Shown here one piece after another: positions 3,792 to 32,877 of a stretch of DNA of 34,027 bases. The DNA is from Catajapyx aquilonaris (taxonomy: Eukaryota): the NCBI GenBank assembly GCA_000934665.2, contig JYFJ02004191.1, positions 1 through 34,027 on the forward strand, in the 5' to 3' direction. How positions within the stretch are numbered: the first letter of the stretch is position 1; every line of letters starts with the position of its first letter. A model generated the notes under the pieces. That model saw only the letters and a program-made list of their open reading frames with translations. It was not told the DNA's origin and searched no databases. The translations under genes were made by a program, and so were the position numbers.

Positions 3792-5527
3792 ATGGAGGGA
3801 CGCTGGACACCTGGAGGAAGCCAAGGTGTGGACCTGAGGAGCGTGATGATGGCGGTGCTGGACAACAGGGACATCCTGGTCAAGCTGCAGAGGAGTGTGG
3901 ACAGGGTCGAGAGGAGGATGCAGAAGATGGAGGAACTCATGGTCGCCAGTGGGGGTCAGTATGGGGCGGTTAACAATTGGGCAGCTCAGTCAGCAAAAGT
4001 GGTTGGCCAAGAGCAAGATTTTGTCCACATTTTACATGCAAAAAGCCGTAGATTGCAGACTAGTTACTGTACCGCACAATAATACATTGAGTAATTACTG
4101 TCATCGTACTAGCCATGCCCAGAGCTGCGCTGGAGGATATACCATCACGATTGGATCAAGAGGAGGAGTTTCCATGTCATCAGGTAGTGAAACAGGAACT
4201 GGTGGGAGACCATCTGCTGGAAACTGATGAACCGGGTGCAAATGAGCAGGTTAGTCATGGAAGTAAATAGCCCAATTGCAGCGTAAAATGAAGGATGTTT
4301 TTATTGCAGGATGAACGATTATCGAATGAGTTTGTGGACGTGAACGGCACGGAGGCAACACGGAACAGTCAGTTGATTGTTTGTGCATGTGAAATTTCGC
4401 TTGACATTTAATTATTTCTACAGGCTTTGACTACAGAGCTAGTGGTTTCGATGCTGGAGGCGAGGCAGAAATTCAAGCGGGACCTGTCATCATGCAAGTT
4501 ACGTCGGCGGTTAATTCGGATTCTATCTCATTGCCGTCTAACAGAATCACGGGACAGGAAGAAGCGGAAGCATATTTGGAAACTCAGGTATTACTTGCAG
4601 CATGTTAGCTTTTATTCCAGTTGCCTTGCACTTCAAACAGCAAGAGATTTGTTCTCAAAAATATTTTCCTTGCTGAAATCATAACTGCCCATTTCATTAC
4701 TTTTGTAGGGATCGCAGGTGCAAGACGTCAAGAGTGAAAATGTATCCCTGCAGTGTAAGGTGTGCTCCAAGATGTTTTCTCATCAATGGGAACTAGAAGA
4801 ATCTGAGAAGTCACGTGAAAGTGGTGCGGATGGGGACAAGAACAAGTCGAAAAGTCGAGGTAGGAGACATGGTAGTGAAGAGACATCTCAGGACGGGGAA
4901 GGAAACAAGACTGAGGACATATCGACTGAAAGAACAACCCTGGCTGAAGGAAAAAGGAAGAAGACTAAGAAAACACCGTCTGCAAGGAAAAGTGTCCATG
5001 AGTGCACCTTTTGTACCTACATAGCTCCGAAAAAGAGTAAATTGATCTTGCATTTGAGAACTCATACTGGGGAGAAACCCTATTCATGTAAACTATGCGC
5101 TCTGAAATACACTTCCCAACGTTCATTGACAAAGCATGTAAAAGCCATTCACCTGCGAGAGAAACCACATGCTTGCATCCACTGCACTAGGAAGTTTTTT
5201 AACAAAGACAAATTGATGCGCCATGTAAAATCAGTTCACCTTGACGAAAGACCATTTGAATGTAGCAGTTGCCCTCTGAAATTTTCTGAGAAGAGTGGCT
5301 TGACGAGGCATGTAAAATCATCTCACCAGCGAGAGAAACAATATGCTTGTGAATTTTGTTCTCGGAAATTTGCTCGCAAATCTAGCCTGCAGTGTCATCT
5401 AAATGCAGTACACCTTGAATTGAAACCGTTCACCTGTTCATTGTGTGAAAATAAGTTTTCCCAAAAATCCTATCTCAATTTCCACATGAAGAAGGTTCAT
5501 AACCGGGGAGAAAAACGTAGCTTTTAG
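3792..5527 (+). CDS. Coiled-coil + 6x C2H2 zinc-finger protein (gene 1), about 446 aa, 5 exons
   Basis: Exons 3792-3954, 4113-4249, 4310-4367, 4424-4587, 4709-5527. All introns are GT-AG with phases 1,0,1,0, totalling 1341 nt. N-terminus MEGRWTPGGSQGVDLRSVMMAVLDNRDILVKLQRSVDRVERRMQKMEEL, an acidic linker with VKQE, then the finger array with HTGEKPY. Confidence 0.88.
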
Positions 5528-6436: not shown

Positions 6437-7523
6437 CTATCTCACATTATGGACTTCCATGTGCCTTGTGAGTATGGCACTCTTGGGAAATTGCCTTCCA
6501 CACACCGAACAGACGTACGGTTGCATTCCAAGGTGAATGGCATTTAGATGACGCTTCAGGTTGCTCTTATGAGCAAATGTTTGAGGACAAAAGTCGCATG
6601 CATAGGGTTTCTCCCCAGTGTGAGTTCTTATATGGGTCATCAATTTACTATTTGACGCAGCTTTGTATGAACAAAAGGTGCAAATATTATGCACAGGATT
6701 ATTCACTGCAGATGGTATATTCATAGTCTTCTTTTCTTGCTTCTTTCTCTCTCCTTCAGCCAGGGTTTTACTCTCAGGTGATATGTTCTCAGTCTTGTTT
6801 CCTTCCCGGTCCTCGGATGTCTCTTCCTTGTCCTCATCAAAAATTCCGACCTTCCAGTCCTCCTTTGAACAGAAGAAAAGTGCAAAAAATTACATACCGC
6901 AGTCCGCAATTTCTTTGCGACTACATAGTTGGAAGAAAGCTGTATATATCGACAAGTTTTAACCTGTATTCATGAAGCATTTTTATAAAACTGAGGACGC
7001 AATTATTAAAAGGGAAGCTACCTGAGTCTCAAAATGCTTGTCCGGTTCTTCCGAATGCACAATGGTCACTTTGGGACGGGACGGGCCGACATCACCAGAT
7101 AAGACCTGAAATGTCACGCTCTCGGGTTGCGGTTCAAGTTCTGGTTCCACTTTTACGGCATCATTTGATGGCTCGACAACTTCAGCTGGTTGGTGCAGTC
7201 CACATGGCATATCACTCTGGGATGTAGCAGACTGCGCGGCTGATATGAAACAAATATGCAGGGTGATTAAGAAATTGCTGTAACAGCTGTTAAAAGGTAC
7301 AGTGTTTTTCATCTCAAATTGTTTGGCACTCACCGTCATACCCGTTTCCTCCCCTGGCACTGATCAGCTCCTCCAGCAGCCTCTCAACCATCCTCTCCAG
7401 CTTCCTAATCTTCCTCTCCATGTTGTCCATCTTCCTGTTTCCTTCGTCCAAACACCGCCTGTTTCCAACCACCACATCCATCATGCTCCTCATCCACACC
7501 TGCATGTCTCCTCCTTGGTTCAT
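6437..7523 (-). CDS. Coiled-coil + 3x C2H2 zinc-finger protein (gene B), about 277 aa, 3 exons
   Basis: Exons 7523-7334, 7239-7022, 6862-6437, all GT-AG and in frame (834 nt). Paralog of gene A. Confidence 0.85.
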
Positions 7524-7876: not shown

Positions 7877-10747
7877 ATGGAGGGACGCTGGACACCTGGA
7901 GGCAGCCAAGGTGTGGACCTGAGGAGCGTGATGATGGCGGTGCTGGACAACAGGGACATCCTGGTCAAGCTGCAGAGGAGTGTGGACAGGGTCGAGAGGA
8001 GGATGCAGAAGATGGAGGAACTCATGGTCGCCAGTGGGGGTCAGTATGGGGCGGTTAACAATTGGGCAGCTCAGTCAGCAAAAGTGGTTGGCCAAGAGCA
8101 AGATTTTGTCCACATTTTACATGCAAAGAGACATAGTTACTGTACCGCACATTGATAAATTGAGTAATTGCTGTCATTGTACTAGCCGTGCCCAGAGCTG
8201 AGCTGGAGGATCTACCGTCCCAACTGGATCAACAAGAGGGATATCCATGTCTTCCGGTAGTGAAACAGGAACTGGGACATGGTCTGCTGGAAACTGATGG
8301 AAATGATGAACAAATTGCAACTGACCAGGTTAGTTACGGATGTTAATTTAAATATTGCAGTGTAAAATGAATGATCGTTACATTCCAGGATGACGGATTG
8401 GCGAATGAGTCTGTAGACACCGGATGCATGGAGACGACAAGTAACAGTCAGTTAATTGAAACTTGTGCGTATGAATTTTCTGTTGACGTTTCATTACTTC
8501 CACTGGCTTTGACTGTGACGACACTGAAGAAAACGAGGGGGAAATTCCAGAGGGACCTATCATCATGCAAGTAACATCAGAGGTTAATGTGGATGCCAGC
8601 TCATCGCCTTCTAACAAAATGCTAGAGCAGGAAGAGGCGGAAGCATATATGGAAACTCAGGTAATATTTGCGGTGAGTTTACTTTAAATTCAAATGATGT
8701 TTTGTGCTTGATTAACTTCCACTTAGTGCTTAGTAAGCTGTGGTACGATAAATTTATAATGTAATATGTTCCTAATAATATTACAGTAAAAGGTGAAGCT
8801 ACCATAATATTCTGTTACATAATTTTCATATATTTTTTTTTCCACCTTTGAAATGGTGCATTAGGTGCTACAGATTTTAATGTACTTTTTATTGCTATTG
8901 TAGATGCTTTAATCTTTTGAATTGCAAAATTGTCCACTAAAACTGTCATTATGATGTAAAAATAATTGGTGTACAATGTGGGACTTTACCTATAGTTAAT
9001 AAATTCTCCCTTTATTTTAAACCAAGGGGGACTGGAAGGAAGGCATTTTAAGTACAAGGGAAGAAAATGTTCGTAACAGCGTGAGGAGTGGAGAATCCGT
9101 TGCAGTACAAAGAGTGGCGAGCATAATAATACAGTAGTTAGAAAAAGCAGAAATGTCAATCCTGAGAATGTCGATGAAAATTAATTGTGATTACTCAGTA
9201 GTTGTTGACTGAAGTATGTAAATTTTTGCACATTTCATATACTCAAAGGAGGACTGGAAGTTCGGCACATTAGATTGGGATGAGGAACATGTGGCAACCA
9301 GTATGGAAGAAGAAGCGACCCTGCAAAGGAATGTATGTCAACTATTTTTTGAACATTCAAAACGAAGATCATGGCCTCTTTGAAGAATTTTCAGGCATTA
9401 TGCGACTTGCTTCTGGACAATGGGTGATTGTGGCCAATTTTTTTAGTGACATTTTTCACTAACAGTAATTCGAATGAAGGAAAAGGATGATGTGCTACAT
9501 TGCAAAAACCCCCATTTTAAGCGTTGCCACATTGTGCAAATGCCATTGAGCCAGCATTTTTATTGAATATAAGTTATATGCTGCTTTAAAAAATTGGCCA
9601 TCAACTACTACTACTACTACCTTATAAATAAAAATTGTAGGAAGATCATAGTGTGGCCTTGTTAAGTTAAGTTAAGTTAAGAGTAACTATCGAAAGAAAT
9701 TCTAGTCCCACCAAAAATTACCTGCCGGACTGAAAGCTCGATCATTTGTTATGCTCCTATTGCACATGCACAGAGCATTAAACTGGGTTAGAATCGCACA
9801 TGAATGGGGGTTATGCCCATTTATGACAGGTATAGAATCCTATTCCTGAATAGTTCGAACAGCACAGCTCTCGTCTGAGTTTTGTCCTCAATTTTAAAAA
9901 TGCTTTTTATCTTGCTGAAATCATAACTGCCATTTCATTACTTTTGTAGGGATCGCAGGTGCAAGACGTCAAGAGTGAAAATGTATCCCTGCAGTGTAAG
10001 GTGTGCTCCGAGATGTTTTCACTGCAATGGGAACTAGAAGCATGTGAGAAGTCACATGAAAGTGGTGAGGATGGGGACAAGAACAAGTCAGAAAGTCGAG
10101 ATGGTAGTGAAGAGACATCTCAGGACGGGGAAGGAAACAAGACTGAGGACGTATCGACTGAAAGAACAACCCTGGCTGAAGGAAAGAGGAAGACTAAGAA
10201 AACACCGTCTGCAAGGAAAAGTGTCCATGAGTGCACCTTTTGTTCCTACCAAGCTCCGAAAAAGAGTAAATTGATCAAGCATTTGAGAACTCATACTGGG
10301 GAGAAACCCTATTCATGTGAACTATGCGCTCAGAAATACGCTTCCCAAGATTCATTGACGAAGCATGTAAAAGCCATTCACCTGCCAGAGAAACCACATG
10401 CTTGCGTCCACTGCACTATGAGATTTCGTGACAAAGGCAAATTGATGCGCCATGTAAAATATGTTCACCTGAGCGAAAGACCATTTGAATGTAGCAGTTG
10501 CCCTCGGAAATTTACTCAGAAGAGTGGCTTGACGAGTCATATAAAATCATTTCACCAGGGAGAGAAACCATATGCTTGTGAATTTTGTTCCCGGAAATTT
10601 ACTTGCAAAGCCAGCGTGCAGCGTCATTTACAAGCTGTTCATCTTGGATTGAAACCTTACACTTGTTTAGTATGCGGAACTAAGTTTGCCCAGGATGCAA
10701 ATCTCACCGCCCACCTGAAGATCCATAACCGGCGTAGAGCAACGTAG
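7877..10747 (+). CDS. Coiled-coil + 6x C2H2 zinc-finger protein (gene 2)
   Basis: Exons 7877-8039, 8186-8328, 8389-8446, then exon 4 ending at 8660. Its paralogous acceptor reads TG at 8504-8505, with an in-frame CAG available at 8548-8550. Then optional 9027-9116 (GC donor), 9249-9332 and 9950-10747 (finger array). Confidence 0.78.
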
Positions 10748-11960: not shown

Positions 11961-14789
11961 GTATTTACTTGCAGCATGATTATAATTTTAAATGGAAAAG
12001 CTCAGTTTTTTTCCATAATATTCTGTCGCATTATGAAAATCTGGGACTGAAAATTGCAATTTTGCCATCTTTGAAATGCACACAGTAGGTGCTACAAATT
12101 ATTATTGACATGGTAGACGTTCAAATTTTTTAATATTGCGAAAAGTGTTCACGGAAACTGATTTAAAAATAAGTGATGTACAACTTGGCAATTTCTTATA
12201 AATTAATTAATTCTCATATTATTTCTAACCAAGGAGGAGTGGAAGGATGGCATTTTAATTGCACTGGATGAAAATCGTCACACCAACATCGGAGAATCAG
12301 CGGGAGGACAAACAGTGGTGAGTGTTCAGCTTCCAAAAGGACGGAAATGTCAAATCCTGATGCAAATTAATTGTCATTACGAAACTTGGGATATTGAGGT
12401 TCATAATTATTGCAAAGTTATGCCGTCATATCCATGTCTCTAATAGTGAAACCATGAAAAATGGATTCTGAAGCATGAATTAGGATTCAGAATAATTGTC
12501 TGATCGGCATGTCACTAAGTAGCTAAAATAATGCTCAATTAATCTGAGACAATTAAGCACATTAAGCTCCCAGTTTCTAATGGCAAGAAAATTGGTTGCA
12601 TTTATTAGACCCTAATTGTCTGAACTGCGAGTTGATTTCACGGAAAGCCCCGACTTACGTAGACCTAGACGTCATGCACAAAAATTAACAGAATCGGCAA
12701 AAGAAACTGGTAGATCCTAAAATGCTGCTAATTGTGAGCATTTAATTGCGGCATGTGAATATTTTCATTTTACATTTTTTTGTTTGTTTAATTCCATTGA
12801 AAAGGGCGGTGGAAAAAAGCGTTCGTCTGACGGAAAGGGGGAGACATCTCGAAAGCGTCGTGTAATCAACTTGGAGACCAAAATGAGCATCATCAGTAAA
12901 CACGAAGGCGGCCAGACCATGACCTCAATTTCTCACGAACTTGGCTACGCACTTTCTACAATCAACACTATCATCAAAGACGCCAGCCGCATACGAGAGT
13001 ACGCTAAAAGTCCTGCCGCCACGAAGTCAGCGATAATCACTAAGAAACGCGAAGGTGCAATTAACGAGATGGAGAATTTGCTGTCGATTTGGTTGGAAGA
13101 GCAGGCTCGAAGGAATGTTCCTCTGAGCGTCCAGTACATTCAGGAAAAGGCCAAAAGCATTTTTGAGGACGTCAAGGTCAATTATCCGGATTGCCTGCAA
13201 ACCTTCTTGGCCAGCAAGAGTTGGTTGAAGCGCTTCAGGAGTCGGGCAGGGTTTCACAACCTGAAGCTCTCTGGCGAGGCCGCCAAGACTAAAAACAAAG
13301 ACCCTGAGTCGTACTGTCCGGAACAGTTTAACGTCAGTGAAACTTCTTTTGCCGTTACAACCACTCCAGTTACCACCACCTCAAGCGATACGAAGGAATA
13401 AGGTACGCTGGATTCCATGGCAACCAGGTCCTCAGTCTTGGCTCACGGCTTGTGAAAGAACGTTATTGTGGCTTTGCCATCTCTGTGAACTGTGAGAGAA
13501 TGTTATTGTGGCTTTGCCATTTCTGTGAGAGAATGTTATTGTGGCTTTGCCATCTCCGAGCGAATGTTATTGTGGCTTAGCCATCTCTTTCTTATTAATC
13601 GGAAGCTGGGAGCTGTGAGCGAATGTTATTGTGGCTTTGTCATCTCCGAGAGAGAGTGTTATTGTGGCTTTGTCATCTCTGTGAGAGAATGTTATTGTGG
13701 CTTAGCCATCTCTTTCTTATTTATCGGAAGCTGGGAGCTGTGAGCGAATGTTATTGTGGCTTTGTCATCTCCGAGAGAGAGTGTTATTGTGGCTTTGTCA
13801 TCTCTGTGAGAGAATGTTATTGTGGCTTTGCCATCTCTTATTAATCGGAAGCTGGGAGCTGTGAGCGAATGTTATTGTGGCTTTGTCATCTATGTGAGAG
13901 AATGTTATTGTGGCTTTGGCATCTCTGTGAGAGAATGTTATTGTGGCTTTGCCATCTCTTTCTTATAAATTGGAAGCTGGGAGCCGGGATTGGGGACAGT
14001 CCATAAACATGGTCCGAGTGACAAAAAAATCCAAGCGCGACAACAATTCGCTTACGTAAGTCGGGGACTTTCTGTGCAAGTCCGCTGTAAAAAGTGTGGG
14101 AGCAAAATGAGATTAGCAGTTAATTAACTAGGCATAAGTGCATAAAAATTCGCAATTTTTCAAAGACATTTTCCTTACAGGAGCCTGCAGCTTGTGAGAC
14201 GTTGCATGAAGCTGCGGATAACAGTGTGGGTGAGACTAGCAAGGCTGCTGGAAGAGGAAGTTCTGACCGTGTGAAAGGAAAGAAGAAGGATGCGGACAAA
14301 CCAGGTGGAAGCAAGCAGGTTAACGAGACGCCTGACGACATCGACGATGTTGTGCACGAGTGCGGAATATGTTCCTACCCAGCCAAGTCGAAGTCGGGGC
14401 TGGCTGTGCACATGCGCCGTCACAAACACAAAGGGCATAATAAACTGCACATTTGCACCGTCTGCGGCCAGCAATTTAACCAAAAGGGCCATCTGAACAA
14501 TCACGTAACATCCATACATTTGAAAGAGAAGCCATACCCTTGCGAGTATTGCCCCCGTAAATTTTCTCAGAACAGCAACCTAAAAGTTCATGTCGAAGCA
14601 GTTCACTTTGGACTGACGCCTTTTCCGTGCCCAGAGTGTGGGCAGGGGTTCAAGAGCCGACGTAGCATGGATGTCCACGTGTACAAGCAACACAAGGAAA
14701 AGGAGCCCTACTCTTGTTCTACGTGCGAAAAGAGATTTCGCAGCAACAAGTGTCTCAAACTCCACATGCGTCTTCATGACACTCCATGA
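11187..14789 (+). CDS. Coiled-coil + 5x C2H2 zinc-finger protein (gene 3), about 400 aa
   Basis: Exons 11187-11349, 11502-11632, 11685-11742, 11803-11960, 12234-12317, 14181-14789. All GT-AG and phase-consistent. AATAAA near 14827. Confidence 0.82.
12805..13401 (+). CDS. CENP-B/Tigger transposase-derived DNA-binding region (HTH_psq + HTH_Tnp_Tc5); candidate alternative terminal exon of gene 3
   Basis: Sequence RKRRVINLETKMSIISKHEGG...ISHELGYALSTINTIIKD...MENLLSIWLEEQ...IQEKAKSIF...FLASKSWLKRFRSR. A long T-rich tract and AAG acceptor at 12802-12804 lie in phase 0. The DDE domain is absent beyond a degenerate YCPEQFNVSETSF. Confidence 0.75.
   Translation, partial: GGGKKRSSDGKGETSRKRRVINLETKMSIISKHEGGQTMTSISHELGYALSTINTIIKDASRIREYAKSPAATKSAIITKKREGAINEMENLLSIWLEEQARRNVPLSVQYIQEKAKSIFEDVKVNYPDCLQTFLASKSWLKRFRSRAGFHNLKLSGEAAKTKNKDPESYCPEQFNVSETSFAVTTTPVTTTSSDTKE
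13456..13985. repeat. Minisatellite with ~31-bp core gagaatgttattgtggctttgccatctctgt and longer variant units ending ggaagctgggagc
   Basis: Tandem copies are directly visible. The ORFs here are just repeat translations (ECYCGF...). Confidence 0.92.
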
Positions 14790-15100
14790 TTCTGATGTGT
14801 ATCGTCTAATTTCTTTCCCCAGGGTAATAAACTGTTCAGCTTAATCTAATTTAACATTTTTCTGATGCAAGTTCGATCCCTGCGGGTTCTCTCTATATTC
14901 ATGTGGGTTTTCTCAGGATCTTTTATTTCCTCCCATTTGAAAAGCCAGTCAGCAGCGGCCAAAATGAATGACGTTGTATCAAGTCGATACACTTTTGCTT
15001 TGATATTTCGTTGTCCATAATCTCGATGTCGAAAATAGTCGCAAACAATTTCAGCGTAATAATAAACAATATAGGCCATGACCATACTAATATTATGAGT

Positions 15101-17805
15101 TTATGCTTTTTGTAAAATGCCCGCAGCCATGCTGAACCTCGATGCCACCAGCGCAACGGCTGTCCCTGAAAGAACGGTTAGTAAACGTGGGACAACGAAC
15201 AAGAAATTAACAAATGCGCAACGTACCAAATTGCGCGGCCACAACCGCTGTTCGGCTTCTTTCTTTTCCAGAAGTTCAGCAACAGCCGTGTGGCCTCTTC
15301 GGATTGCAAAATGTCGTGCGGTGTAGCCGTATAACGCAGGTCTTTTTCTCGTATCTGCCCCCTTTTCCAAGAGGTGCCTCACAATTTCAAGGTGGCCGAA
15401 CCATGCGGCGTACTGCAACGGCGTGAGACCTTCTTCGTCTTCTCCGTCCACCTCTGCCCCGAGGTCAACCAGGAGGCGAACCACTTCCAGCTGACCGTTC
15501 ACCGCAGCCGCATGAGCCGCAGTCATCTCCCTTCTTGTCTCGTCCGTTAAACCAAACACCCACCAATTTACGACCCAATGAACTATTGAGACTTGCGGTA
15601 ACTCCCGACATGTATGATCCGACATTGCTGTGATGTTCACACCTTTTTTTATCCAATCCGCTACCTCCGTCAGACTACCCTTTCTGCATGCTTCAGCAAA
15701 ATTCCATATAGGAACCTGAAGAATACGACTAATGATTGTCCATACTGTTACGAGATGATAATGCACTTACTTTTTCAGACTCGGCCAGCAGCCATTGCTT
15801 CATTTCGGTCTCAATGTAAAGAGCGGTTGGACGACATGATGGGACGCTGCTCGTCATGGACTTGAGAAGCTCCTTTTCATCCGGATTCAGCTGCGAGTCC
15901 ACCTCTTCTGGGAGTGGATTCTGGCTTCTGAGGGACTCGAACGCTTCGTTCCGTAGTTTCTTGTTGGCGCCAAACGGAACCAGCATCTCCAACAGGATCA
16001 ACCCCATTGAAAATACATCTGATCGCTCGTCGTAATCGTTTTCGTCGAGTCTTTCTGGCGACATGTACAGCCTAGTTCCGATGCATGACGATTCCTCATC
16101 TCCATTGGAAGCCCAACTGGTGCTAAGGCCGAAGTCCCCGATTTTAATACACTTCCCGTCAAGCGACAGGAAAATATTGTGCGGCTTGAGATCTCGGTGG
16201 ATGTATCCTTTGTCGTGAATGTAACATACGCCTGATGCAATCTGCTGGAAGTAGCTCATGTTGGTGTATTTGTACGTTACGTTGCTGTTGTTAAGCTTGT
16301 GTCCGAGCGTTTCTTCCTGGCATAGCTCCAGCTGCATGTAGAGAAAGTCAATGGTTGGGCCGGTCAGGATCGTTTCAGAGGTGAAGTACTCCGAAGCTCT
16401 TTCCGACGCTTCGGGAGTCGACATGTAAGTAAAAAGCATTGCGTCCAGTTCCGCCTGGACCCAACCCGGCGGATTTTCCTCCCATACATGATGGCACTTG
16501 ACGACATTCTCGTGGCTCAGATTCATCAATGCGCGGACCTCCCTCAGAACCACCAACTTTTGTCGACCATCCGGCAACTGGACTCGCTTCACTGCGAACA
16601 TGGCCTGAGCCAGCTTCAACTCCGCCTTCAGTACGACCCCAAACGACCCGTTTCCTATGAGCGACTTGTGATTGAAGTCGTGCATATACCTCGACTTGAA
16701 TGGTATGTCGACAGTAGTTCTGCGGAGAAGTACAACAATTAAATATTGGTAAAACAATGTAATAAGTGCATACCTGTGAATTTTCTGCATGTGTCGCATT
16801 AGTATCTGATGAGCTTTGACGTGGCCTTTGAGAAATGCAAGGCTGGCCGCAGTTCCTTTTGTTCCGTCCTGGGCATGCGGGTCAGCACCTGTTCTCAGAA
16901 GCAACTGGACAACATCCGAGTGTCCCGAATGCGCCGCAGCATGAAGTGGAGTGCGGCCTGTCTTCGAGCAGATGTCCACTGCGGCATGGTTGTCCAGCAA
17001 GAGTTGGCATATGTCCACATGTCCGTTCCTGGCTGCCTCGTGCAACGCTGCATTTCCATCCAGATTTTGAGCATTCACGTCACAATCCGATGCGGCCAAG
17101 AGCAACCGACATGCTTCGGTGTTGCCCATACGAGCTGCCAGAATCAGCGGTGTCTCCTGATACTGGTTGCGCTCATTTGCATTGTACCCATCCGGCAGTG
17201 GCATGCGACAAGCGGCCGCAATATGCACATCATTCGGCGCAGAGACCAGAAACTTTGCAAATTCAGTCCGGTCCTGGTTAGTCGCAACCATGAATGGAGT
17301 AAGCTTCTCCGCATTTTTACACTCCAGGTTTGCACCTCCCTCCAACAGCAACCGTCCGACTTGGATATGCCCTCCGTACGCAGCCGTGTGCAAAGGAGTG
17401 TCCAGCGTCACTGTCATCTGTTGCATGTCCGCACCGTGGTCCAGCAGCATCCTGCAGATCTGTACGTGTCCGTTAGCAGCAGCATTATGCAGAGCCGACA
17501 GATGGTTGCGGTAATCCTGTAATTTTATTGTCATTGTTATCATCCAGAGTATATTTGGTACACAGAGAACATTATCATATTGCCTGAGCATTGACTGAAG
17601 CACCATGTAGCAACAGCAGCTCGCACACTGACGGGGATCCCAACCCAGCGGCAACCATCAGAGCGGTGGTGCCCCGCCTGGTGGTTGAGTCCACTCTGTC
17701 GCCTCTCTCCAGAAGGGTGCGAACCAAGGTTGCTGATCCAGTAGCCGCGGCACAGTGCAAGTCAGGTACGCTTGCGTCGCTCTCCAGCAACTCTGCGCAG
17801 GCCAT
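15101..17805 (-). CDS. Ankyrin repeats + PERK-like eIF2-alpha-family Ser/Thr kinase + ankyrin repeats + hydrophobic C-terminal tail, about 842 aa, 4 coding exons
   Basis: Exons 17805-17584, 17516-16774, 16719-15771, 15715-15101 (2529 nt, in frame). Introns are 67 nt (GC-AG), 54 nt and 55 nt (GT-AG). Ankyrin motifs include TALMVAA, SALHNAA, TPLHTAA, TPLILAA, TPLHAAA and TPLQYAA. Kinase motifs are GNGSFG, FAVK, LREV, HRDLKPHN, DFG, GTRLYMSPE and DVFSMG. Confidence 0.85.
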
Positions 17806-18254
17806 GCTTTACGACCTGTAGGTTCAACTAACGCCACAAGACAGATCATTTGATGGGAAAGTAAGAAAGAATTATGATAAACCTGAATGTGAACCAACAT
17901 TGAAATTATTTGGGGGAAAATAATTCATTAAAATATGTGCATTTGCAATAATTTATCGTGTCAAGTAGAGCGACGCATACACCTACCCTCTATAGTAGTC
18001 TAAATAACAGACTTGACCTCTCACATATCTAGCTGTAACCAGCAATCCCAAGCAACTGATAATAGAAGCGGACAGCCGTCAAGTTCAAATAAGTCATGTT
18101 CTTATCGCCACACGTTATCTCTTTTCCTTTGTCCTTCATACATCTTTAAAAAAAAGCAGTAACTATATATAATGAATTTTATTACTGCTGATTGATTTCG
18201 GTTAATTTCATGGCTCCGCAGGCCACTACAAGGACATGCGAGGCATTTAAAACA

Positions 18255-18726
18255 GTTGTACCAGTTAGTTAATTGATTAATTAGTTACCGGTAGTTATAG
18301 TTAATAAAATTAACTGGCTTCCACATGAACCTATTGAAAGGTCGTGGCGTATAAGAGGGAAAGTTTGTTTGCATGTTAGTTAACTTATTAGTTAGTTAAT
18401 TAATAAAATTATAAGCTGCCTCCACATGAATCTTACATGTGTGTACAGGCCTATAAAAGGGAATCCGGAAAGTTAGTAAGTATGTCTGTATAAGTATGTT
18501 AGTTTATTTGTTTGCTTCTTTGTTAGTATACTAACAAAGAAGCAAAGAAGATTAGCATGTCTGTATGTTAGTTAGTTTGCTTGTTTGTCCATTGTATATA
18601 TGGCATCAAACGATGGAAACAACAAAGTCAAAGCTTCACATGAATTAGTACAGCCAGTATAGTAATTAGTAGTAGTCTGCTGGTTAGACCACCTCCCATT
18701 CAAAGAGTGCGAAGTACGGTACTATA
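18255..18726. repeat. Degenerate (ttag/tttg/tatg)n-rich repeat region, possibly Helitron/HINE-derived; includes a perfect 36-bp palindrome at 18511-18546
   Basis: Repeated gttagttaattaataaaatt...ctccacatgaa units and microsatellite-like tracts. Confidence 0.45.
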
Positions 18727-18868
18727 ATTGTGTGCCAAATTAAACTAATAAACACCAATCCTTTAGTAGATTGCTCTCAATTTGTAAAAGTACGAGCCCC
18801 GTTTAATCATATTTTGCATCGATTGAAGGTCAACGGCATACGATTTTCGCCGCCGCCGATGCGTGTTA

Positions 18869-19074
18869 CCGAAACGGACACCGTTTGGCTCAGGGTCGGA
18901 TCGGGTCGGTCGGTCGTGCAGCCGTGCGCCGCGGCCGTGAACAAAATATTCCGGAAGCCACACTATTTGTTCACGGCCGCACGGCCGCACGGCTGCACGA
19001 CCGGCGCGGCGGCATGACCAGCCGTCCGACCGTCCGACCGCGTCCGACCATGAGCCAAACGGTGTCCGTTTCGG
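18869..19074. mobile_element. GC-rich foldback MITE-like element between the kinase and SEC11 5' ends
   Basis: 24-bp TIR ccgaaacggacaccgtttggctca / tgagccaaacggtgtccgtttcgg, plus inner inverted repeats gcggccgtgaacaaa / tttgttcacggccgc. Confidence 0.7.
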
Positions 19075-19515
19075 AATCTCGCGATACTACCGATCAAACT
19101 ATATTGGCATCATTTCCATCTGGCAACCCCCCACATGTCAAAACACCACCTGGCAACCTTGACGTGACGTTTCACACCCCCAATAGCCGCTACTTTCCAT
19201 TCTAGCAGCTACTGTGCCGACTAATACCCGGCGCGTCCGTTCCTTTTTGGTGTTTGCGACTCTCGCAGGTAACGGCTATCCGTTCCAACTCCAATGCAGC
19301 AGCTGTGCTACCTTCTGGGCCGGTGAGTTGGCGTCTCCCGGAGAGAAGCCATATCGAGTCGGATCCGGCCTGCCTCTCTCTCCGTGTGTGTGCCCTCCGT
19401 TCCCACTGCCTTTCCTTTTAGAACGTCTGTCGCCCCGGTTTTGGAACGCCTTTCGTCCGGTTGGGGCCTGGCGTTCGATCCAAGAGGACAAGAGGGAGCC
19501 AAACACACTCCAGCC

Positions 19516-21454
19516 ATGATCCAAGGCCTGTTCGACGATGTCAAGCGAATGAACAAGCGTCAGGTAAAAATGACCCAAGTGTAACATGTGTTTTGCAGCA
19601 TCCACATCAACATAAATTGAACTCTAATTTTGCACCTTAAAAATCTCAACACAATATGTAACGGAAAGTTTTGTTTGTTTGTCAGTTGTCGTTGGACATA
19701 TCCAACGAGGTCACGATGACAGCGGGTTGCCATGGCCATTTAAAAAAAAATCTAGCTGTAGATTGTTGTTGTTCGCAATACTACTTCACCCCTTATTTTT
19801 GACAATGTATCTGTAGTGACACGCCGCTTTCGAACATTTGCAGTGGGCCTGCCGGACCAGTGCGCTAACCATATGGTGTGCGCACCGGTCCGGCAGCAAA
19901 ACCGGTCGAAATGCAAAGGATGGGCTAATATAACAATAATATAATAATAATTCATACCCCGTTATCAGCCGGCGGCTCTTTAGGGGGGATATTTTTTTTG
20001 TTTTGACTGGAACTCTTCGTTTCGTTTTTACTGCGCTTTTTGGGATAGGAAAGGAAGGAGGCGGCTGTGGCCTATTAGTTTAGGAAACAACTCCAGAATT
20101 CTCCTGGAGGAACCATGGGATACCACAGAAAACCACGGTTAGAGTTGCCGGCACCGGGATTCGAGCCCGGGACCTCCCGATAAGCAGTCGGATACCTTAT
20201 CTCCTCCGCCACCACTGCTTCGGTGGCTAATATAATAATCATCATCGTCATCATCATTAATTAATATTCATCATGGCCTTGATTCCATTAATACTAATAA
20301 TACTGGAGGAGGACACTTTTTTGTCCACAATTCAGTACAGTACTTGTAATTCTCATTATTTTCTGTACGTTCGTAGTTTCCTGTTCAATGCGTTCTGCAG
20401 TGACCAGGCTCTTGTCTAATGCGGTGTGTTGTTTATTGCAGTTTCTCTACCAGGCGCTTAGTTTTGGCATGATAGTTTCGTCGGCGCTGATGATATGGAA
20501 AGGCCTCATGGTGGTTACTGGAAGCGAGAGCCCCATTGTCGTGGTACTCAGGTCAGTTTTAGCACTGGAAAAGTTGACCGCCATTTTCATGGAATAATGA
20601 ATTTGTAAGCAACTGCCAAAATTGAAACCATTAAACTTCAAGTCTGCCTTTCTGCTGAAATTAATATCCATTTTCCTTCTGTCTATGTTCTGTTCACATG
20701 TTTTTATCCTTAAAGCCGCTTTTACATGCGAGCGATTTGATCAGCGATATTGCAGTGATATACATCGCTGAGTGAAAGTAACAAGCGTTTCGGCCCAAAC
20801 AATTGCTCAGTGATGTACATTGCTGCAACATCGCGGATCAAATCCATTGAATGTAAAGGTGGCCTAAAGTCAATTATGAACAGATGAAATCAGTCATAAA
20901 TTTATTATGGGCATTAAAAAGTAGGTGTGAAATGTTGATGAAATATTTGTGAACATTTACAGTGGAAGTATGGAGCCGGCGTTCCATCGAGGCGACCTCC
21001 TCCTCCTCACCAATTACGAGGATGAGCCTATTCGAGTCGGTGAAATCGTAGTGTTCAAGGTGGAGGGCCGAGACATTCCAATTGTGCATCGCGTGTTGAA
21101 ACTGCATGAAAAGTGAGTTGCACCGTTGCAAATGGACACCTGAATCTGACCCAAGTTGCGTTTACAGGGAAGATGGCAAAGTCAAGTTCCTGACCAAGGG
21201 AGACAACAACAGTGTGGATGACCGAGGACTGTACGCACCAGGGCAGCTGTGGCTGACCAAGAAGGACGTCGTGGGCCGAGCAAGGGGATTCCTACCCTAC
21301 GTCGGCGCTATCACCATTTACATGAACGAATATCCAAAGTTTAAAGTGAGTATTAATGCAGGATACGGTGGATGCGACTAACTCACAATTTTTTCCGCCG
21401 CAGTATGCTGTACTAGCGTGTTTGGGCTTCTACGTGCTAATTCATCGCGAGTGA
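19516..21454 (+). CDS. SEC11: Signal peptidase complex catalytic subunit SEC11, 178 aa, 5 exons
   Basis: Exons 19516-19563, 20442-20551, 20963-21112, 21168-21345, 21404-21454 (537 nt). Motifs [29 protein letters not shown] and [16 protein letters not shown]. Confidence 0.97.
19848..19897. repeat. Short foldback element in SEC11 intron 1
   Basis: ctgccggaccagtgcgc...gcgcaccggtccggcag imperfect inverted repeat. Confidence 0.55.
20041..20224 (-). mobile_element. tRNA-derived SINE in SEC11 intron 1
   Basis: The minus strand has A-box-like ggtggcggaggagataagg and B-box-like gggctcgaatccc, followed by a non-tRNA body ending ggccacagccgcctccttcctttcc. Confidence 0.72.
20714..20864. mobile_element. 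PIF/Harbinger-like MITE in SEC11 intron 2
   Basis: Degenerate TIRs agccgcttttacat / atgtaaaggtggcc with TAA on both flanks and a palindromic interior. Confidence 0.65.
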
Positions 21455-24061: not shown

Positions 24062-24859
24062 TTCAAAGCAGCTGCGTTTCATTCGACCCGCCATGTTCGA
24101 TTCAAGATGGCCGCTCCGAAGGAATGGAATTTCTCGATTTCTCCTCACATTTTTGGCAATATTCGAGCTTTTCGTGGCGTGGATGACCTTTTGGACTAGA
24201 GGAGAAGACTCTGGGGGCTGCCCCGGGTTCGGGGAGAGTAGAACAGGTAATGATTGCTGCCTACCAGCACCTCCATAAGATCACTGATCACTAGAGTAAA
24301 GATTTAATAATGATCACTAGTTAATATTAATGACAAATATGACCTTGAATGTCTAAAATTAGCAAACAAATATATTTTTTTTGCACATTTTAATGTCCGC
24401 AGAGAAGACTAGTGCCTTACTTCCAGTTACTTCCAGGATTTGTCAGCGTGTGCCTTTACCCTGGAGCTGGAGAAAAAGGAGAATTTTTTGCTGGAGGCTT
24501 GAAAGGACTTTGAAAGACTCCCTGGAACAACTTGGAACAACCGGTAATAATTTTTTGGCCTGAGTCGACATGAGTGAGCTGGATTTAGCATTTGGGCATT
24601 GGCCGAGTATCCCTGAGAATGCACGTGATAATGTACCCACTGGTTACAATAATACAGCAAATGCGAAAATCTGGAGTTCGTCAAGATTGGTAATGAAAGC
24701 CAGATTCTTAACACTGTGAGATTCCGCAATTCACTTCTTGAATTATTGCATGTTTAATAGTACTCATTGACTTCCCAATAGCGAAAAAGTAGCGAGAGGA
24801 ATGTTTAAATTTTACGTACAGAAAGTACCCTGTTTAATGATGCTTCAATTTTCCAGGCC

Positions 24860-26365
24860 ATGCCAAGAAGGAGACAGCCTCAAAGTCTGAGACACTTGAG
24901 TGTGAGCTGCCTGGCCAGCACTGTCCTGCAAGTGTCCAAGCGGAGCAACGGCCACAATCAGGATGGGATCAGCCAATTTGTGCAAGACATTCCGGAGATG
25001 TTTGCGAACGAATACGTATTGAAGATACTCAGGTTGTACTCAGAGGCGAAAGACGCAGCCTACAGCATTAGCCGTGCATTTCATCCCAAATGCACCAAGA
25101 TTACCGCAGAAGATGGAATGGGCTATTTGACACTCCCGTCACATAGTTACTGCCAATTGTTTATGAATCTGCATGTTATGAATGAGCTGCAGGTTTTTAA
25201 AGCTTTCTTTTGCGGGAGGGACGAATCTGCTGTTCACGATGTGTTAAGATCTCATCCGTTTCCCAATCTGAGCAAACTCCGTGAAGTTTCGATAACGCAA
25301 ATTCCAGATGCACAACACCTGGAGCAGGTGATTGAAAATTGTCCGCTCCTGGAGAATGTGATGACTGAAGGCCTCTTGACACGCGATATTCACATTGTTT
25401 CAAGCTGCAGGCACCTTAAAACATTTTGGGCTTATCCCATTAATCCTGATGTTGCCGTACATCTGCTTGAGAACCTGCCCAACCTGGAATGTCTGAGTAT
25501 TGAAAATGTGCCCCAATTGTTGCCACTCTGTACACGGGCATATCCTTTGAAGCGATTTGCTTCGTATGTGAAGCCAATCGGAGTCGCTGACATACCAAAG
25601 CTCGTGACCCACTTTCCGCATCTGGAAGATCTAAACCTAAACATTGATAGTGACGCAGATGCAAGCCCCATTAACCATCTCCTAGGCCTCAAACGCTTCA
25701 TAATAAGAAGAGGTTCGGCTTCCAGACTTGTCTGCCTGAGAGACGTTCTCATGGGTCGTATTTCCTGGTTAACAATTCTTAATGTCACCAACCTTAATTT
25801 GTTGTTCTCACTAGAGATGAAGCTTCCAAGCGCACAGCTCAAATCCCTGATAATTTCAGGATGCACTGGCATCAACGTGGCTGCCATCGGTCAGATATTT
25901 CCAGATTTGCAGTCACTCGACTTGTTTGGCAGTGAATTCGAACCTCTTCCTCCATGCCAAATGATGACAGGTTCTGCTTTTCAAGCACTTGAAGAATTGA
26001 AGATTAATCAGAATGTGCCGATGGTTCATGCTAAATATCTGCTGTCAGCATCCGGCAACAAATTAAAGGAACTCCAATTGTCCAACTCATCAGACGTTTC
26101 GACTGCATGTGAACTTCTGTCTGGAGCTAGACTGAAGGAGTTGCGTGAAATCGTCGTGAGTGACGCGAAGGTGACAAAAGATGTCATCCCAATAATTTTG
26201 GCTGCATGCGGAGATCACTTGGCAGTGGCAAGTGTGTGCGGTGATAATATGGAAATGTCAGTGGATGAAGACCTTGCGTTGAAAAGTCAGTTGCGACCGT
26301 ACGACATGATCTTTGATGTCTCAACCCCAGTCACATTTGGGTTGTTAGATGTGAATGGCAATTAA
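24860..26365 (+). CDS. Leucine-rich-repeat protein with N-terminal BC-box-like motif (LRR gene 1), 501 aa, intronless CDS
   Basis: Uninterrupted ORF with LxxLxL repeats (LPNLECLSI, FPHLEDLNL, FPDLQSLDL) and N-terminal PQSLRHLSVSCL. The acceptor tttccag|gccATG implies a spliced 5' UTR. Confidence 0.88.
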   Translation: MPRRRQPQSLRHLSVSCLASTVLQVSKRSNGHNQDGISQFVQDIPEMFANEYVLKILRLYSEAKDAAYSISRAFHPKCTKITAEDGMGYLTLPSHSYCQLFMNLHVMNELQVFKAFFCGRDESAVHDVLRSHPFPNLSKLREVSITQIPDAQHLEQVIENCPLLENVMTEGLLTRDIHIVSSCRHLKTFWAYPINPDVAVHLLENLPNLECLSIENVPQLLPLCTRAYPLKRFASYVKPIGVADIPKLVTHFPHLEDLNLNIDSDADASPINHLLGLKRFIIRRGSASRLVCLRDVLMGRISWLTILNVTNLNLLFSLEMKLPSAQLKSLIISGCTGINVAAIGQIFPDLQSLDLFGSEFEPLPPCQMMTGSAFQALEELKINQNVPMVHAKYLLSASGNKLKELQLSNSSDVSTACELLSGARLKELREIVVSDAKVTKDVIPIILAACGDHLAVASVCGDNMEMSVDEDLALKSQLRPYDMIFDVSTPVTFGLLDVNGN

Positions 26366-27018: not shown

Positions 27019-29452
27019 CTAGAGGTATCGTTGCACAAAATGCCAGAACCCCATGAAGTTGACCATCTCCCTGGACCGGCTGTCTCCGTAGTCCACCTCA
27101 TACCCTGCGTACACGACCTGGCCCGAGAGACACAGGGTCAGGTCGTACATCCTGAGCTGCTTCTGCAAGTGGTACATGTCGCTCAGGAACATTGGGCTCA
27201 GATGCGCTCCGCTCAGCTGGACCTTCTCCAGGCAACTGCTGTTCTTGAAAGCCTCCAGCACCACCTCCAGTATGTCCTCTCTGAGATGGTCGCTGTCCAG
27301 GTTCAGACTACGAAGGTTTATCGCTGGATTCCTCCTGGAACATTGGTTTATTAGTAGCTTACTACTGTAGATAAAAAAACTGTGTTGCGCTCGTTTCAGG
27401 GTCGTGCGAGAGGTGGACGAAGCACTAACTTGTTTATCTGCACAAGTACTTGAACCGTGACTGCGTTGCATCCCAGCAGCTCCAGTGACTCCAGTCCTTG
27501 ACACGAGCACAGCAGGAACTGGAGGTGGTCTTCCTGGACGTTGTCGGTGAAGACGATGGACAGAGACTGCAACGTGTGGAATGGCGTGTCCGTGTACGGC
27601 GAGGCCACTTCGGTCACCTCGCATTCCTCGATGCACAGGTGCTGAAGGTTCGGGAACACCTCGCTGATACCGGACACGTCGACGTCCTCGCACATGTACA
27701 GGCTAAGGTTCTGGACGTTCGGGAACACGGATTGGTCGTACCTCTTGATGGTGATGTCCACCTGAGACGTGTCTATGAGGGTGAAAGTGGTCAGGCGACG
27801 CAGACACGGTCTCAGCTCGATGGTCAGGAAAGGAAGAGGGTACGTGCTGCTCTCGATGGTCAGGTCCACCAGGCCGACCAGCTGGTTGAGCGGTGCCAGC
27901 GGAGTGGACACGTTGGTCAGCCTGACTATGAGCACGTCCAACAAAGGGAAGTGACGCACCAGCCTGTCCAGGACACCCGGGTCGTTATCGATCGGGGTCT
28001 GAAAGTCCTTCAGGTTGTACCTCTGGTCCTGGAACTCGCTGAGGACCCCGGACATGTTCGGTACCGACAGGACCTCCGATAGACAAAGACAGTCTTTTAT
28101 TAATATTATAATACTCGCTGCGACACCCGGCGTTGCTCGGGAAGAAATGAACGGAAAGCAAGCTGAAAAGGACATGCAAAAAAAACATGTAATTAAGAAT
28201 CTTAATTAAAGCAAGATTAAAGGAAGGACGGGAGAGGTTGGGAGGTGTAGGAGGCGGACCACAGATGGCAGGCATATGGGTTATTGGCGTTCCAGGCGGA
28301 CAGACAGACAGATCACAAACGGCTTTATTTGTATAGAAGATATGAATTAATGAAGAATTTGCCAAAACTTGGCAACACCGCCCGGACCGTGGACTTAGTA
28401 CCACATCCCTCACATAGATGGCACACACTACTCGGACAAACAGGGGGCACAGACCCAAGCCTTGGCAACGTCGCAAACGTCGGCCAATTTGTTCTCCCGT
28501 TGGTGTTTGTGTCATCTGTATGGCTTTTGGGTGACCGCACCAGTGCTGTCCGTCTTGTGGCGCCGAAGCCCAACGAACGTTATTGTGGCTTGACCGCCGC
28601 TGCTTACTGTTGGTGTCATCTAGTGAGGCGCTGGAGTGACCGCATCTGGATTTGTGGCCCTGCCAGGCACGGTACGTCGCGATTGCCCGGCGTGGGTTGT
28701 GTATCCGCGACATTACTGCCCGTCTTGTGCGCCGCAGCCCAACGAACGTTATTGTGGCTTTGCCAATTTGCCATTTGTTTAAAAAATATCGGAATTCTGT
28801 AAATATGAGTTACCTCCAGTAGTGGCAGGGCGTCCAGGATGTATATGATGTCTTCTGCCGTCGCTTCGGGACAGTCCACCAAGGCCTTCTGGAGGTGTCC
28901 GAAGCTGGTGAGCAACAGGAACTGGTTTGTGGACATCGGATAGAGCAGCTGGATCCTCTCCAGCTGGTGACAATGTCTGATCAATCCGTTCATCAGCTGG
29001 GGCTCGACCGGTACTGGAAGCTGCAGATCTCGGACGCTCTTCATCCTGTGGACGTTCTCGATGGCGATTCTGTCGTCGAAGTCGGACGGAAAGTATATCC
29101 CGGCCCTCAAGGTGGTCAGGTCCGGCATGGCGTCCAGGTTGTCGAAGAGCTGGCGACACACGACGGTCGAGATGACCGTTCGTATGTCCGCGCACATGTA
29201 GGACAGGTCGACGTCGTCGCATCGCGGATGGAACGCGTCTCGAAGGCTCACCTCCGCGTCGCGACTCCAACGCTTCCTGGATGCCAGATCCAGCAACGTG
29301 TAGACGTACGCGTTGGCCAGGTGCGGCGGAACGCGTCTGACGTACCACCGGACACCCTCGTCGTTCTTGCCGGCCAGCTTCTCACACGCGTCGATGACCG
29401 CATGAGTCACACAGTGTAGCGACAGACCTTCCAATGTCTTCCTCTTAGGCAT
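27019..29452 (-). CDS. LRR protein with BC-box-like N-terminus (LRR gene 2), about 532 aa, 3 coding exons
   Basis: Exons 29452-28814 (MPKRKTLEGLSLHCV...AFHPRC), 28073-27430, 27334-27019, totalling 1599 nt. The junctions LPLLE|VLSVPN and QINK|RNP restore alignment to the paralogs. Confidence 0.8.
28114..28340 (-). mobile_element. Non-autonomous Helitron-like element in LRR gene 2 intron 1
   Basis: The minus strand begins TC (tcttctatacaaataaag), carries a (tctg)n tract, and ends with hairpin ccgagcaacgccggg and a CTAG-like CGAG|T. Confidence 0.6.
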
Positions 29453-30009
29453 TGCTACATCACAAAAACAAGTGAAAACTGGCAACACCGTGCGCGTAGT
29501 ACCACATCCCTCACATAGATGATGGCCACCATCAGGGTAATGCGAGTGGCTACGCGAGGGATGTGGTACTACATGCACTTGTCGCCCCCCGGACACTAAG
29601 AATATGCATACATTACACTAATTGACATCACTTGCCTTAAATTCAGGGTGTGTGGTGACTGGCAGATTCGCGCAATTAATGTGATTAATAAGTCCTAATT
29701 TGACTAGGTATTTTAAAAAACGGCAAGTCCAGGATTACAACAATTTTTTTCGATTAATAATGAGAAGGGCATAGCTTAGCAACAGTGAAGTACTTGGATT
29801 AACGGCTCTCTGACTGTCAGGCCAACGAACGTTACTGTGGCTTTGCCACCGCCGCCGCCTGGTGTCATCTGTGAAGCGTTGGAGTGACCGCACCAGTACT
29901 TTGTGACGCTCATAGGCCCGGATTCCAACAATGTTTTGAACTAATAACGAAGTGAGTACCGGTATCTCAGCAACAAGTACTCGATTATTGCCAATCTTTT
30001 ATTACTTAT

Positions 30010-32821: not shown

Positions 32822-32877
32822 CTGGAAGTGTACAGAAGATGAGTCATTCACACAAATTTTCTCGTCAAAATATCTGC

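Follow-up and report, generated by a model that had tools for sequence, protein, structure and literature searches.

Four eIF2-alpha kinases are taught for animals, each of them defined by its sensor domain, and we know of no PKR-like cytosolic sensor that has been credited to arthropods. Ankyrin repeats (ANK) are the sensing part of RNase L, in which recognition of a small ligand by the repeats leads to dimerisation. Here we describe a gene of Catajapyx aquilonaris whose product holds a kinase domain, almost certainly of the eIF2-alpha kinase (PEK) family, between two ANK arrays and ahead of a predicted C-terminal transmembrane segment. The gene occupies positions 17805 to 14923 (minus strand) of contig JYFJ02004191.1 (assembly GCA_000934665.2), whose 34,027 nucleotides (nt) form the whole stretch analysed, hereafter the window. 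The best explanation of this locus, and one that we consider somewhat probable, is a catalytically competent kinase of the PERK branch, flanked by ankyrin repeats, equipped with a C-terminal membrane helix and directed at eIF2-alpha.

Among the described systems, PERK (EIF2AK3) provides the best match to the kinase domain in both sequence and fold, and has in common with it the SRYxxDF and W-x-E-PP-x-W motifs, an insert between beta strands 4 and 5, and the YMSPE sequence. PERK is likewise a membrane-tethered kinase that faces the cytosol, as is predicted for the Catajapyx protein. However, the latter lacks both a signal peptide and the luminal beta-propeller sensor, and only ankyrin Pfam families were identified N-terminal of its kinase. 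Its anchor is C-terminal of the kinase, whereas that of PERK is N-terminal; its insert measures approximately 40 amino acids (aa), whereas PERK sequences need hundreds of residues between the two matched stretches; and the T-x-x-E motif that precedes helix G is changed. Judged by its sequence, the protein is not an orthologue of PERK. A first-pass annotation of the locus had stated that the canonical sensor domains are absent and that ANK repeats stand on both sides of the kinase, and our Pfam searches agree with it on both counts.

The addition of new sensors to this kinase family has a precedent. PMC11305385 describes PKR as having arisen in jawed vertebrates by domain shuffling, which brought a double-stranded RNA (dsRNA)-binding domain onto a pre-existing EIF2AK, and treats Ser51 phosphorylation as the shared function of the EIF2AK clade. 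The Catajapyx protein follows the same principle as PKR (EIF2AK2) and the fish Z-alpha kinase PKZ, that is, a new N-terminal sensor on an eIF2-alpha kinase domain, and the kinase domains of PKR and PKZ are approximately 35-40% identical to its own; its putative sensor consists of ANK repeats, in contrast to the dsRNA- or Z-DNA-binding domains of PKR and PKZ. RNase L shares with it an ANK array N-terminal of a kinase-fold domain, but combines a pseudokinase of another family with a C-terminal KEN ribonuclease, whereas the catalytic residues of the Catajapyx kinase are complete. No KEN or ribonuclease family was found in our Pfam scan of the protein, and RNase L was not among its 60 best PDB matches. 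Finally, ANKK1 and RIPK4 join ANK repeats and a kinase in one chain, but with the kinase first and the repeats after it, and in our LG+C20 tree (see below) their sequences formed a clade of their own (support 97) outside the PEK clade (97-99).

The gene is intact, transcribed and composed of five exons, which when joined by their coordinates encode a protein of 881 aa. Translation starts at 17805, since the frame is closed by a TAA two codons before this start codon. Coding exon 1 (17584-17805, residues 1-74) supplies the initial methionine and the first two ANK repeats (Pfam Ank, 1e-11), and coding exon 2 (16774-17516, residues 75-322) supplies repeats 3 to about 9. The entire PEK-family kinase domain is contained in coding exon 3 (15771-16719, residues 322-638), with a Pfam kinase envelope at approximately 15819-16673, and the translation places the SRYMHDF motif at 16674-16694. 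Searched together, positions 15771-17516 gave Ank_2 at 5.6e-67, in five stretches, and Pkinase at 5.5e-49. Coding exon 4 (15227-15715, residues 639-801) encodes a C-terminal array of about four repeats (15245-15706; Ank_2 at 6.5e-21 over 15104-15715), in which a 30-aa insert unrelated to ANK follows the first repeat. Coding exon 5 (14923-15165, residues 802-881) ends with the stop codon TAA at 14925-14923, which an AATAAA overlaps, and is followed by a 3' untranslated region of at least 14846-14922. The first-pass annotation had proposed the same ANK, kinase and ANK order; this is confirmed by Pfam on the minus strand, although the length of about 842 aa that accompanied it falls short of the 881 aa of the five-exon model.

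The splicing of the gene was assessed with contigs from one public run, X1, whose library type is unrecorded; no run recorded as RNA contains the stretch. A contig of 1246 nt (record 2) aligns to 14846-15164, 15226-15713 and 15769-16207, and omits two pieces, of 61 and 55 nt, each bounded by GT..AG when read along the minus strand, indicating that it derives from spliced RNA. This confirms intron 3 (15716-15770, 55 nt, GT-AG), and with it the junction 15771/15715 anticipated in the first-pass annotation, as well as intron 4 (15166-15226, 61 nt, GT-AG, GTACGT...TTCTTTCAG). Further contig cover of the kinase exon was found at 16443-16620. Exon 4 is unbroken in the 1246-nt contig; an extra intron within it, near the odd HTCRELPQVSIVHWVVNWWVFGL stretch, was considered and is ruled out, as the contig is continuous there. 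Removal of the 61 nt of intron 4 shifts the reading frame, so that the protein runs on in the frame 14923-15177 to its TAA. The sequence previously taken for a hydrophobic tail, CAFVNFLFVVPRLLTVLSGTAVALVA, is therefore mostly intron 4.

The two upstream introns are predicted. Intron 1 (17517-17583, 67 nt) must be of the GC-AG type, since read-through would meet a stop codon after 6 nt of the intron, GT donors in the right phase are lacking, and the ANK register is kept across the join (HGASVNAQ to DYRNHLSALH). Intron 2 (16720-16773, 54 nt, GT-AG, GTATGC...CTCCGCAG) is in frame; it is also free of stop codons, and its retention would add 18 residues, most of them hydrophobic, at the boundary of ANK array and kinase. 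As positions 16744-17679 have no contig cover in run X1, the junctions 17584/17516 and 16774/16719 remain predictions, and it is on these that an artefact of the gene model, in which separate ankyrin and kinase genes were wrongly merged, would depend. We regard such an artefact as extremely improbable. The N-terminal ANK array and the kinase occupy a single unbroken stop-to-stop frame of 642 aa (15729-17657, minus strand) even without splicing, with further ANK repeats in the listed frames 17575-17808 and 15101-15766 of the same strand; one contig runs from the kinase exon through the C-terminal ANK exon into the last exon; and neither a start-codon context nor a stop lies between the parts.

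The identity of the kinase exon as a member of the PEK family is close to certain. When it was searched against the PDB with phmmer (query P0004), PERK was retrieved at 149 bits (E=1.4e-42), GCN2 at 138, HRI at 134.5 and PKR at 127, all ahead of the best match outside the family, at 101 bits. A search of 1.84 billion representative proteins returned 492 proteins at E 1e-30; whole-protein scores were inflated by models with several kinases, and the comparison was made per single domain. The top single-domain matches (approximately 180 bits) were proteins that also bear the PERK luminal domain, and a working set of 200 proteins included 75 with that domain and 19 with dsRNA- or Z-DNA-binding domains. 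In a word-indexed search, the kinase part had 39 matches with E no higher than 1e-10; at their head stood arthropod proteins, 37-42% identical to it, whose names were eIF2-alpha kinase or eIF2-alpha kinase 3-like. We additionally noted that 10 of the best 40 representative matches (P0163, P0165, P0167-P0171, P0183, P0194 and P0195) bear dsRNA-binding domains, mostly with two kinase domains per model, and that one of them also contains Z-alpha.

Comparison of structures gave a similar result. An AlphaFold2 model of the kinase, built from an alignment of 35 sequences, reached a predicted local distance difference test score (pLDDT) of 89.5, and in a Foldseek search with this model a PERK structure (3qd2) was ranked first (4.8e-22), with more PERK, PKR and GCN2 structures next. 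The first kinase from outside the family, CaMKII, was listed at rank 37, and Aurora likewise came after PEK members. PERK, GCN2, HRI and PKR in the PDB search, and PERK, PKR and GCN2 in Foldseek, thus outscored every other kinase family.

For the phylogeny, kinase domains were aligned to a hidden Markov model built from the query and 27 one-stretch matches, retaining match columns only. Sequences with more than 30% gaps were removed, a cut-off of 55% identity reduced the PERK sequences from 65 to 13, and one of 75% was applied to the other groups. The resulting hand-picked set of 77 contained the query, 13 PERK, 11 PKR-like, 9 HRI and 3 GCN2-type sequences, 10 domains from the ostracod Cyprideis torosa (see below), 2 PLK, 2 RIPK4/ANKK1 and 26 unlabelled sequences. 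In a quick tree inferred under LG+C20 with posterior mean site frequencies, the PEK clade was recovered with the query inside it (support of 99 in the Shimodaira-Hasegawa-like approximate likelihood ratio test), and the query grouped with all 13 PERK sequences (84). Its sister (87) was P0306, a stand-alone kinase of 298 aa encoded on a contig of 1.2 kb, whose own best PDB matches are PERK. An LG+F+G4 tree with ultrafast bootstraps placed the query in a clade with 11 PERK and 11 unlabelled sequences (84), and the PKR-like clade (97-98 in two trees) left it out. Approximately unbiased (AU) tests rejected placement of the query outside the PEK family (p=0.0008), with HRI (p=0.0045), with the PKR-like sequences (p=0.049), and with either the first (p=0.0098) or the second (p=0.03) set of C. 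torosa domains.

A signature of the PERK branch was also found. The motif W-x-E-PP-x-W was identified in 70 of the 75 proteins with a PERK luminal domain, but in none of the PKR-like (0/19), HRI (0/9), GCN2 (0/3) or C. torosa (0/18) sequences, and it is present in the query as WEENPPGW, at the start of the insert; P0306 lacks it. This motif, the PDB and Foldseek rankings, the trees and the AU rejection of positions outside the PEK family support a kinase that is closest to, or derived from, the PERK branch, as had been claimed from the letters of the sequence.

The kinase is very probably active. We identified 51 of 288 match columns in which the same residue forms the majority (at least 70%) in PERK (65 sequences), PKR-like (29), HRI (9) and GCN2 (3) proteins. 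Forty-one of these are also common in 47 sequences from outside the PEK family, and the query retains 38, the three exceptions (I/M, M/L and L/M) being conservative. The lysine of VAIK, the glutamate of helix C, HRD and DFG are all intact, and AVKRV, LREV, HRDLKPHN and SPE are present. Both the complete catalytic residues and the kinase motifs quoted in the first-pass annotation were recovered in the translation.

The N-lobe dimer motif and the insert of the family were also retained. The SRYxxDF motif, of which the arginine and the aspartate form the salt bridge of the back-to-back dimer in work on PKR and GCN2, is present as SRYMHDF, with R332 and F337 kept. The insert separates WEENPPGW from FLYMQLELC by approximately 40 residues, and is modelled as short helices (pLDDT 61-78); a motif of the LYIQMxLC type follows it, with Q451 and C455 kept. 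In the activation loop, S532 occupies the column in which the family has the regulatory threonine, Thr446 in PKR. Serine can be phosphorylated too, and the following GT, as well as YMSPE, is kept.

Several observations weigh against a PERK-branch kinase directed at eIF2-alpha. The junctions at either end of exon 2 are without contig cover, as described above. The terminal branch of the query is long (1.09), its grouping with PERK has moderate support (84), and GCN2 is represented by only three sequences. The constrained trees of the AU tests came from fast searches, the unconstrained fast tree lying 19.9 log units below that of the full search, and the model used for these tests and for the ultrafast bootstraps is site-homogeneous. 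Moreover, of the 10 columns that are rare outside the PEK family, only five (R332, F337, W401, Q451 and C455) are kept, the other five being changed (Y to C397, T to S532, K to R554, T to A573 and E to K576). Two of these substitutions fall within the T-x-x-E-R motif ahead of helix G, which keeps its R; its T and E are majority residues (at least 70%) in each of the PERK, PKR-like, HRI and GCN2 groups, the T reaching 94-96% in PERK. Helix G is reportedly the surface on which eIF2-alpha docks in the PKR-eIF2-alpha complex, according to work of Dar et al. and of Dey et al. in 2005. With this motif and half of the family-specific columns changed, eIF2-alpha as the substrate is something that we infer, and to which we attach slightly better than even confidence.

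The principal rival explanation builds on the same changes. Following duplication and fusion to the ANK arrays, a PEK-derived kinase might have ceased to act on eIF2-alpha, and might now phosphorylate other substrates recruited by those arrays, serving in membrane signalling and leaving translation initiation untouched. The loss of T-x-x-E (A573, K576), the retention of only five of the 10 family-specific columns and the long terminal branch would all fit such a history, as would the nearest relative, P0306, which shares an altered ...KLR... stretch and likewise lacks T-x-x-E; ankyrin repeats, besides, are established as general protein-binding scaffolds. Conversely, the dimer motif of the N-lobe, Q-x-x-x-C, the position of the insert, the GT of the activation loop and YMSPE have all been retained, and PERK is still the best match in sequence and in fold. 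PMC11305385, moreover, argues that phosphorylation of Ser51 is common to the clade. We consider this alternative possible, if rather unlikely.

A second alternative is a decaying or regulatory, non-catalytic paralogue from a lineage-specific expansion, which would be drifting towards a pseudokinase or scaffold. Contig depth over the gene is low (approximately 6 in run X1), and two hydrophobic stretches outside the ANK repeats break up its C-terminal part. However, all catalytic motifs are intact, as are 38 of the 41 general columns; 881 codons have stayed open across four introns with proper splice sites; the transcript is spliced; and the fold is predicted with confidence (pLDDT 89.5). Decay of this kind therefore seems improbable to us. 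The kinase domain lying in a single exon had further been read as compatible with a retrocopy, but in a gene whose introns measure only 54-67 nt this is unremarkable. A retrocopy origin is unsupported, though not disproved: the identity of the kinase exon to any PERK is at most 44% over aligned columns, and there are no flanking direct repeats of at least 25 nt within 12500-20500. We found no second copy of the kinase within the window.

The predicted membrane segment is located in exon 5. On the Kyte-Doolittle scale, no window of the protein scores higher than one in residues 824-846 (15031-15099; mean 2.24 over 19 aa), which form its only strong hydrophobic segment, with KKHK ahead of it, an acidic stretch after it and 35 residues from there to the C-terminus. 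A signal peptide is absent, and the N-terminus is not hydrophobic. Given this absence and the basic residues N-terminal of the helix, the kinase and both ANK arrays should lie on the cytosolic side of an internal membrane to which they are tethered. Tail-anchored proteins lack a signal peptide and have a single transmembrane segment within roughly their last 30-40 residues. With one segment, at 824-846 of 881, and 35 residues beyond it, the Catajapyx protein stands at the limit of this definition, and the earlier proposal of a possibly tail-anchored protein may not hold in the strict sense.

We investigated how far the combination of ANK repeats with a PEK-family kinase is distributed. ANK repeats were found in none of the 150 best kinase-domain relatives when these were searched by phmmer with the window's own array, in none of the top 40 kinase relatives by Pfam, and in none of the 39 word-indexed kinase matches. 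A homology search with the whole piece gave 3339 matches, dominated by ankyrin proteins, few of which have kinases. A single one of these, P0090 from C. torosa (27% identity), aligned over ANK and kinase jointly. A search with its kinase part returned 17 more C. torosa proteins, and ANK and kinase co-occur in 17 of the 18. A PDB search with the Cyprideis protein was dominated by ankyrin matches, latrotoxin entries among them.

These C. torosa sequences (P0090, P0329-P0342, P0345 and P0349), each recorded as an unnamed protein product, represent a multi-copy, uncharacterised crustacean family that resembles the Catajapyx protein in having an N-terminal ANK array followed by a PEK-family kinase. 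Five of the 18 models end in a conserved hydrophobic segment at most 10 residues from the C-terminus, after a K/E-rich stretch, and this segment, on its position, is a classical tail anchor; several of the longer models look like fused neighbouring genes. In contrast to the Catajapyx protein, the family has no second ANK array, carries the K/E-rich stretch before its anchor and, in its first set, has DLG in place of DFG and a poorly conserved helix-C region. Its kinase domains also take other positions in the PEK tree: the first set is placed with or near the PKR-like sequences or else basally in the family, whereas the second groups with HRI. The design of ANK repeats, PEK kinase and membrane anchor seems, therefore, either to have arisen more than once or to involve domains that have diverged past the reach of the tree. 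As judged from the predicted domains of both species, this broad design is not unique to C. aquilonaris. The lineage-specific architecture proposed in the first-pass annotation is rare, having no counterpart among the 150 best kinase relatives, but has an analogous ANK, PEK-like and tail-anchor family in C. torosa.

The pairing of ANK repeats with kinases in general is common, and ANKK1, RIPK4, DAPK1, TNNI3K, TEX14 and algal families made up the nearest clusters by language-model features to the piece with ANK and kinase. The kinases of these proteins belong to families other than PEK. The Protein Atlas scores were 0.96-0.99 for many unrelated kinase clusters and hence do not discriminate between them. 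One arthropod cluster of the Atlas, automatically named 'IRE2-like', has 219 members with Pkinase and Ank_4 in 89%, and could be a further ankyrin-kinase family with a bearing on this gene; clusters of the PDIK1L type lay near the kinase taken alone. An ankyrin-bearing eIF2-alpha kinase, PERK-like or PEK architecture was not found in the literature, arthropod kinomes included, in a search that covered titles and the starts of abstracts, with subscription journals outside it. A preprint on the Stentor kinome (10.1101/168187) reports a PEK pseudokinase subfamily, and the word 'ankyrin' does not occur in its main text.

The kinase gene is situated beside a cluster of C2H2 zinc-finger genes, at 4709-5527, 9950-10747 and 14124-14789 on the plus strand and 6437-6889 on the minus strand. 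The frames that begin at 4709 and 9950 have near-identical N-termini, and look like recent tandem duplicates. The 3' end of the kinase gene, which a contig extends to 14846, overlaps the convergent zinc-finger gene (contig 14180-14862) by approximately 17 nt, at 14846-14862. Between that zinc-finger gene and an upstream frame (12721-13401) there is a tandem array (13465-13989) of at least four copies, with a period of approximately 121-125 nt and 61-93% identity to the reference copy. Upstream of the kinase gene we identified an inverted repeat (18861-18916 and 19027-19082), whose 56-nt arms are 86% complementary and 110 nt apart. Contig depth climbs sharply from 19318, which may point to a repeat element or to strong expression of a neighbouring gene. 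Long leucine-rich frames, seemingly paralogues of one another, were found at 24809-26365 (plus strand) and at 27396-28205, 28616-29617, 31232-31960 and 32233-32847 (minus strand). In the frame 32512-33360 (plus strand), a stretch of approximately 60 aa (…VRPSVRGQVSGPKPQEIATNGFRIRI…) occurs twice, which implies that a few hundred bases of the DNA are directly repeated.

The mechanism that we propose for an eIF2-alpha-directed kinase of the PERK branch is as follows. The ANK arrays would stand in for the luminal sensor of PERK and bind a cytosolic protein or ligand. Such binding, or else clustering, would pair two kinase domains through the N-lobe interface, for which the arginine and the aspartate of SRYMHDF are kept. 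The activation loop would then be autophosphorylated, where a serine replaces the family's regulatory threonine and GTxxYMSPE retains its GT, and the kinase would phosphorylate eIF2-alpha at Ser51, lowering translation initiation. A role for the protein as an immune-type sensor is doubtful at present.

If the proposal holds, a PERK-branch kinase with ANK repeats in place of the luminal sensor, and with a C-terminal anchor, would extend the modular evolution of the family to arthropods, and the gene would be a concrete candidate for the control of translation by a new kind of input. A product of 881 aa and a single kinase exon make it compact enough for direct tests. The parallel family in C. 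torosa suggests that ankyrin repeats, a PEK kinase and a membrane anchor are a recurrent design. More speculatively, and in our view improbably, a fifth class of eIF2-alpha kinase may exist in crustaceans, and perhaps in other arthropods. It would be PERK-derived, anchored C-terminally on the cytosolic side of a membrane and triggered through its ANK repeats by cytosolic ligands or pathogen proteins, in which case repeated duplication and domain swapping, as in C. torosa, would reflect an arms race with pathogens. Were this so, the fifth class would act as a translation-shutoff sensor, with a logic like that of PKR and of the ankyrin sensor of RNase L.

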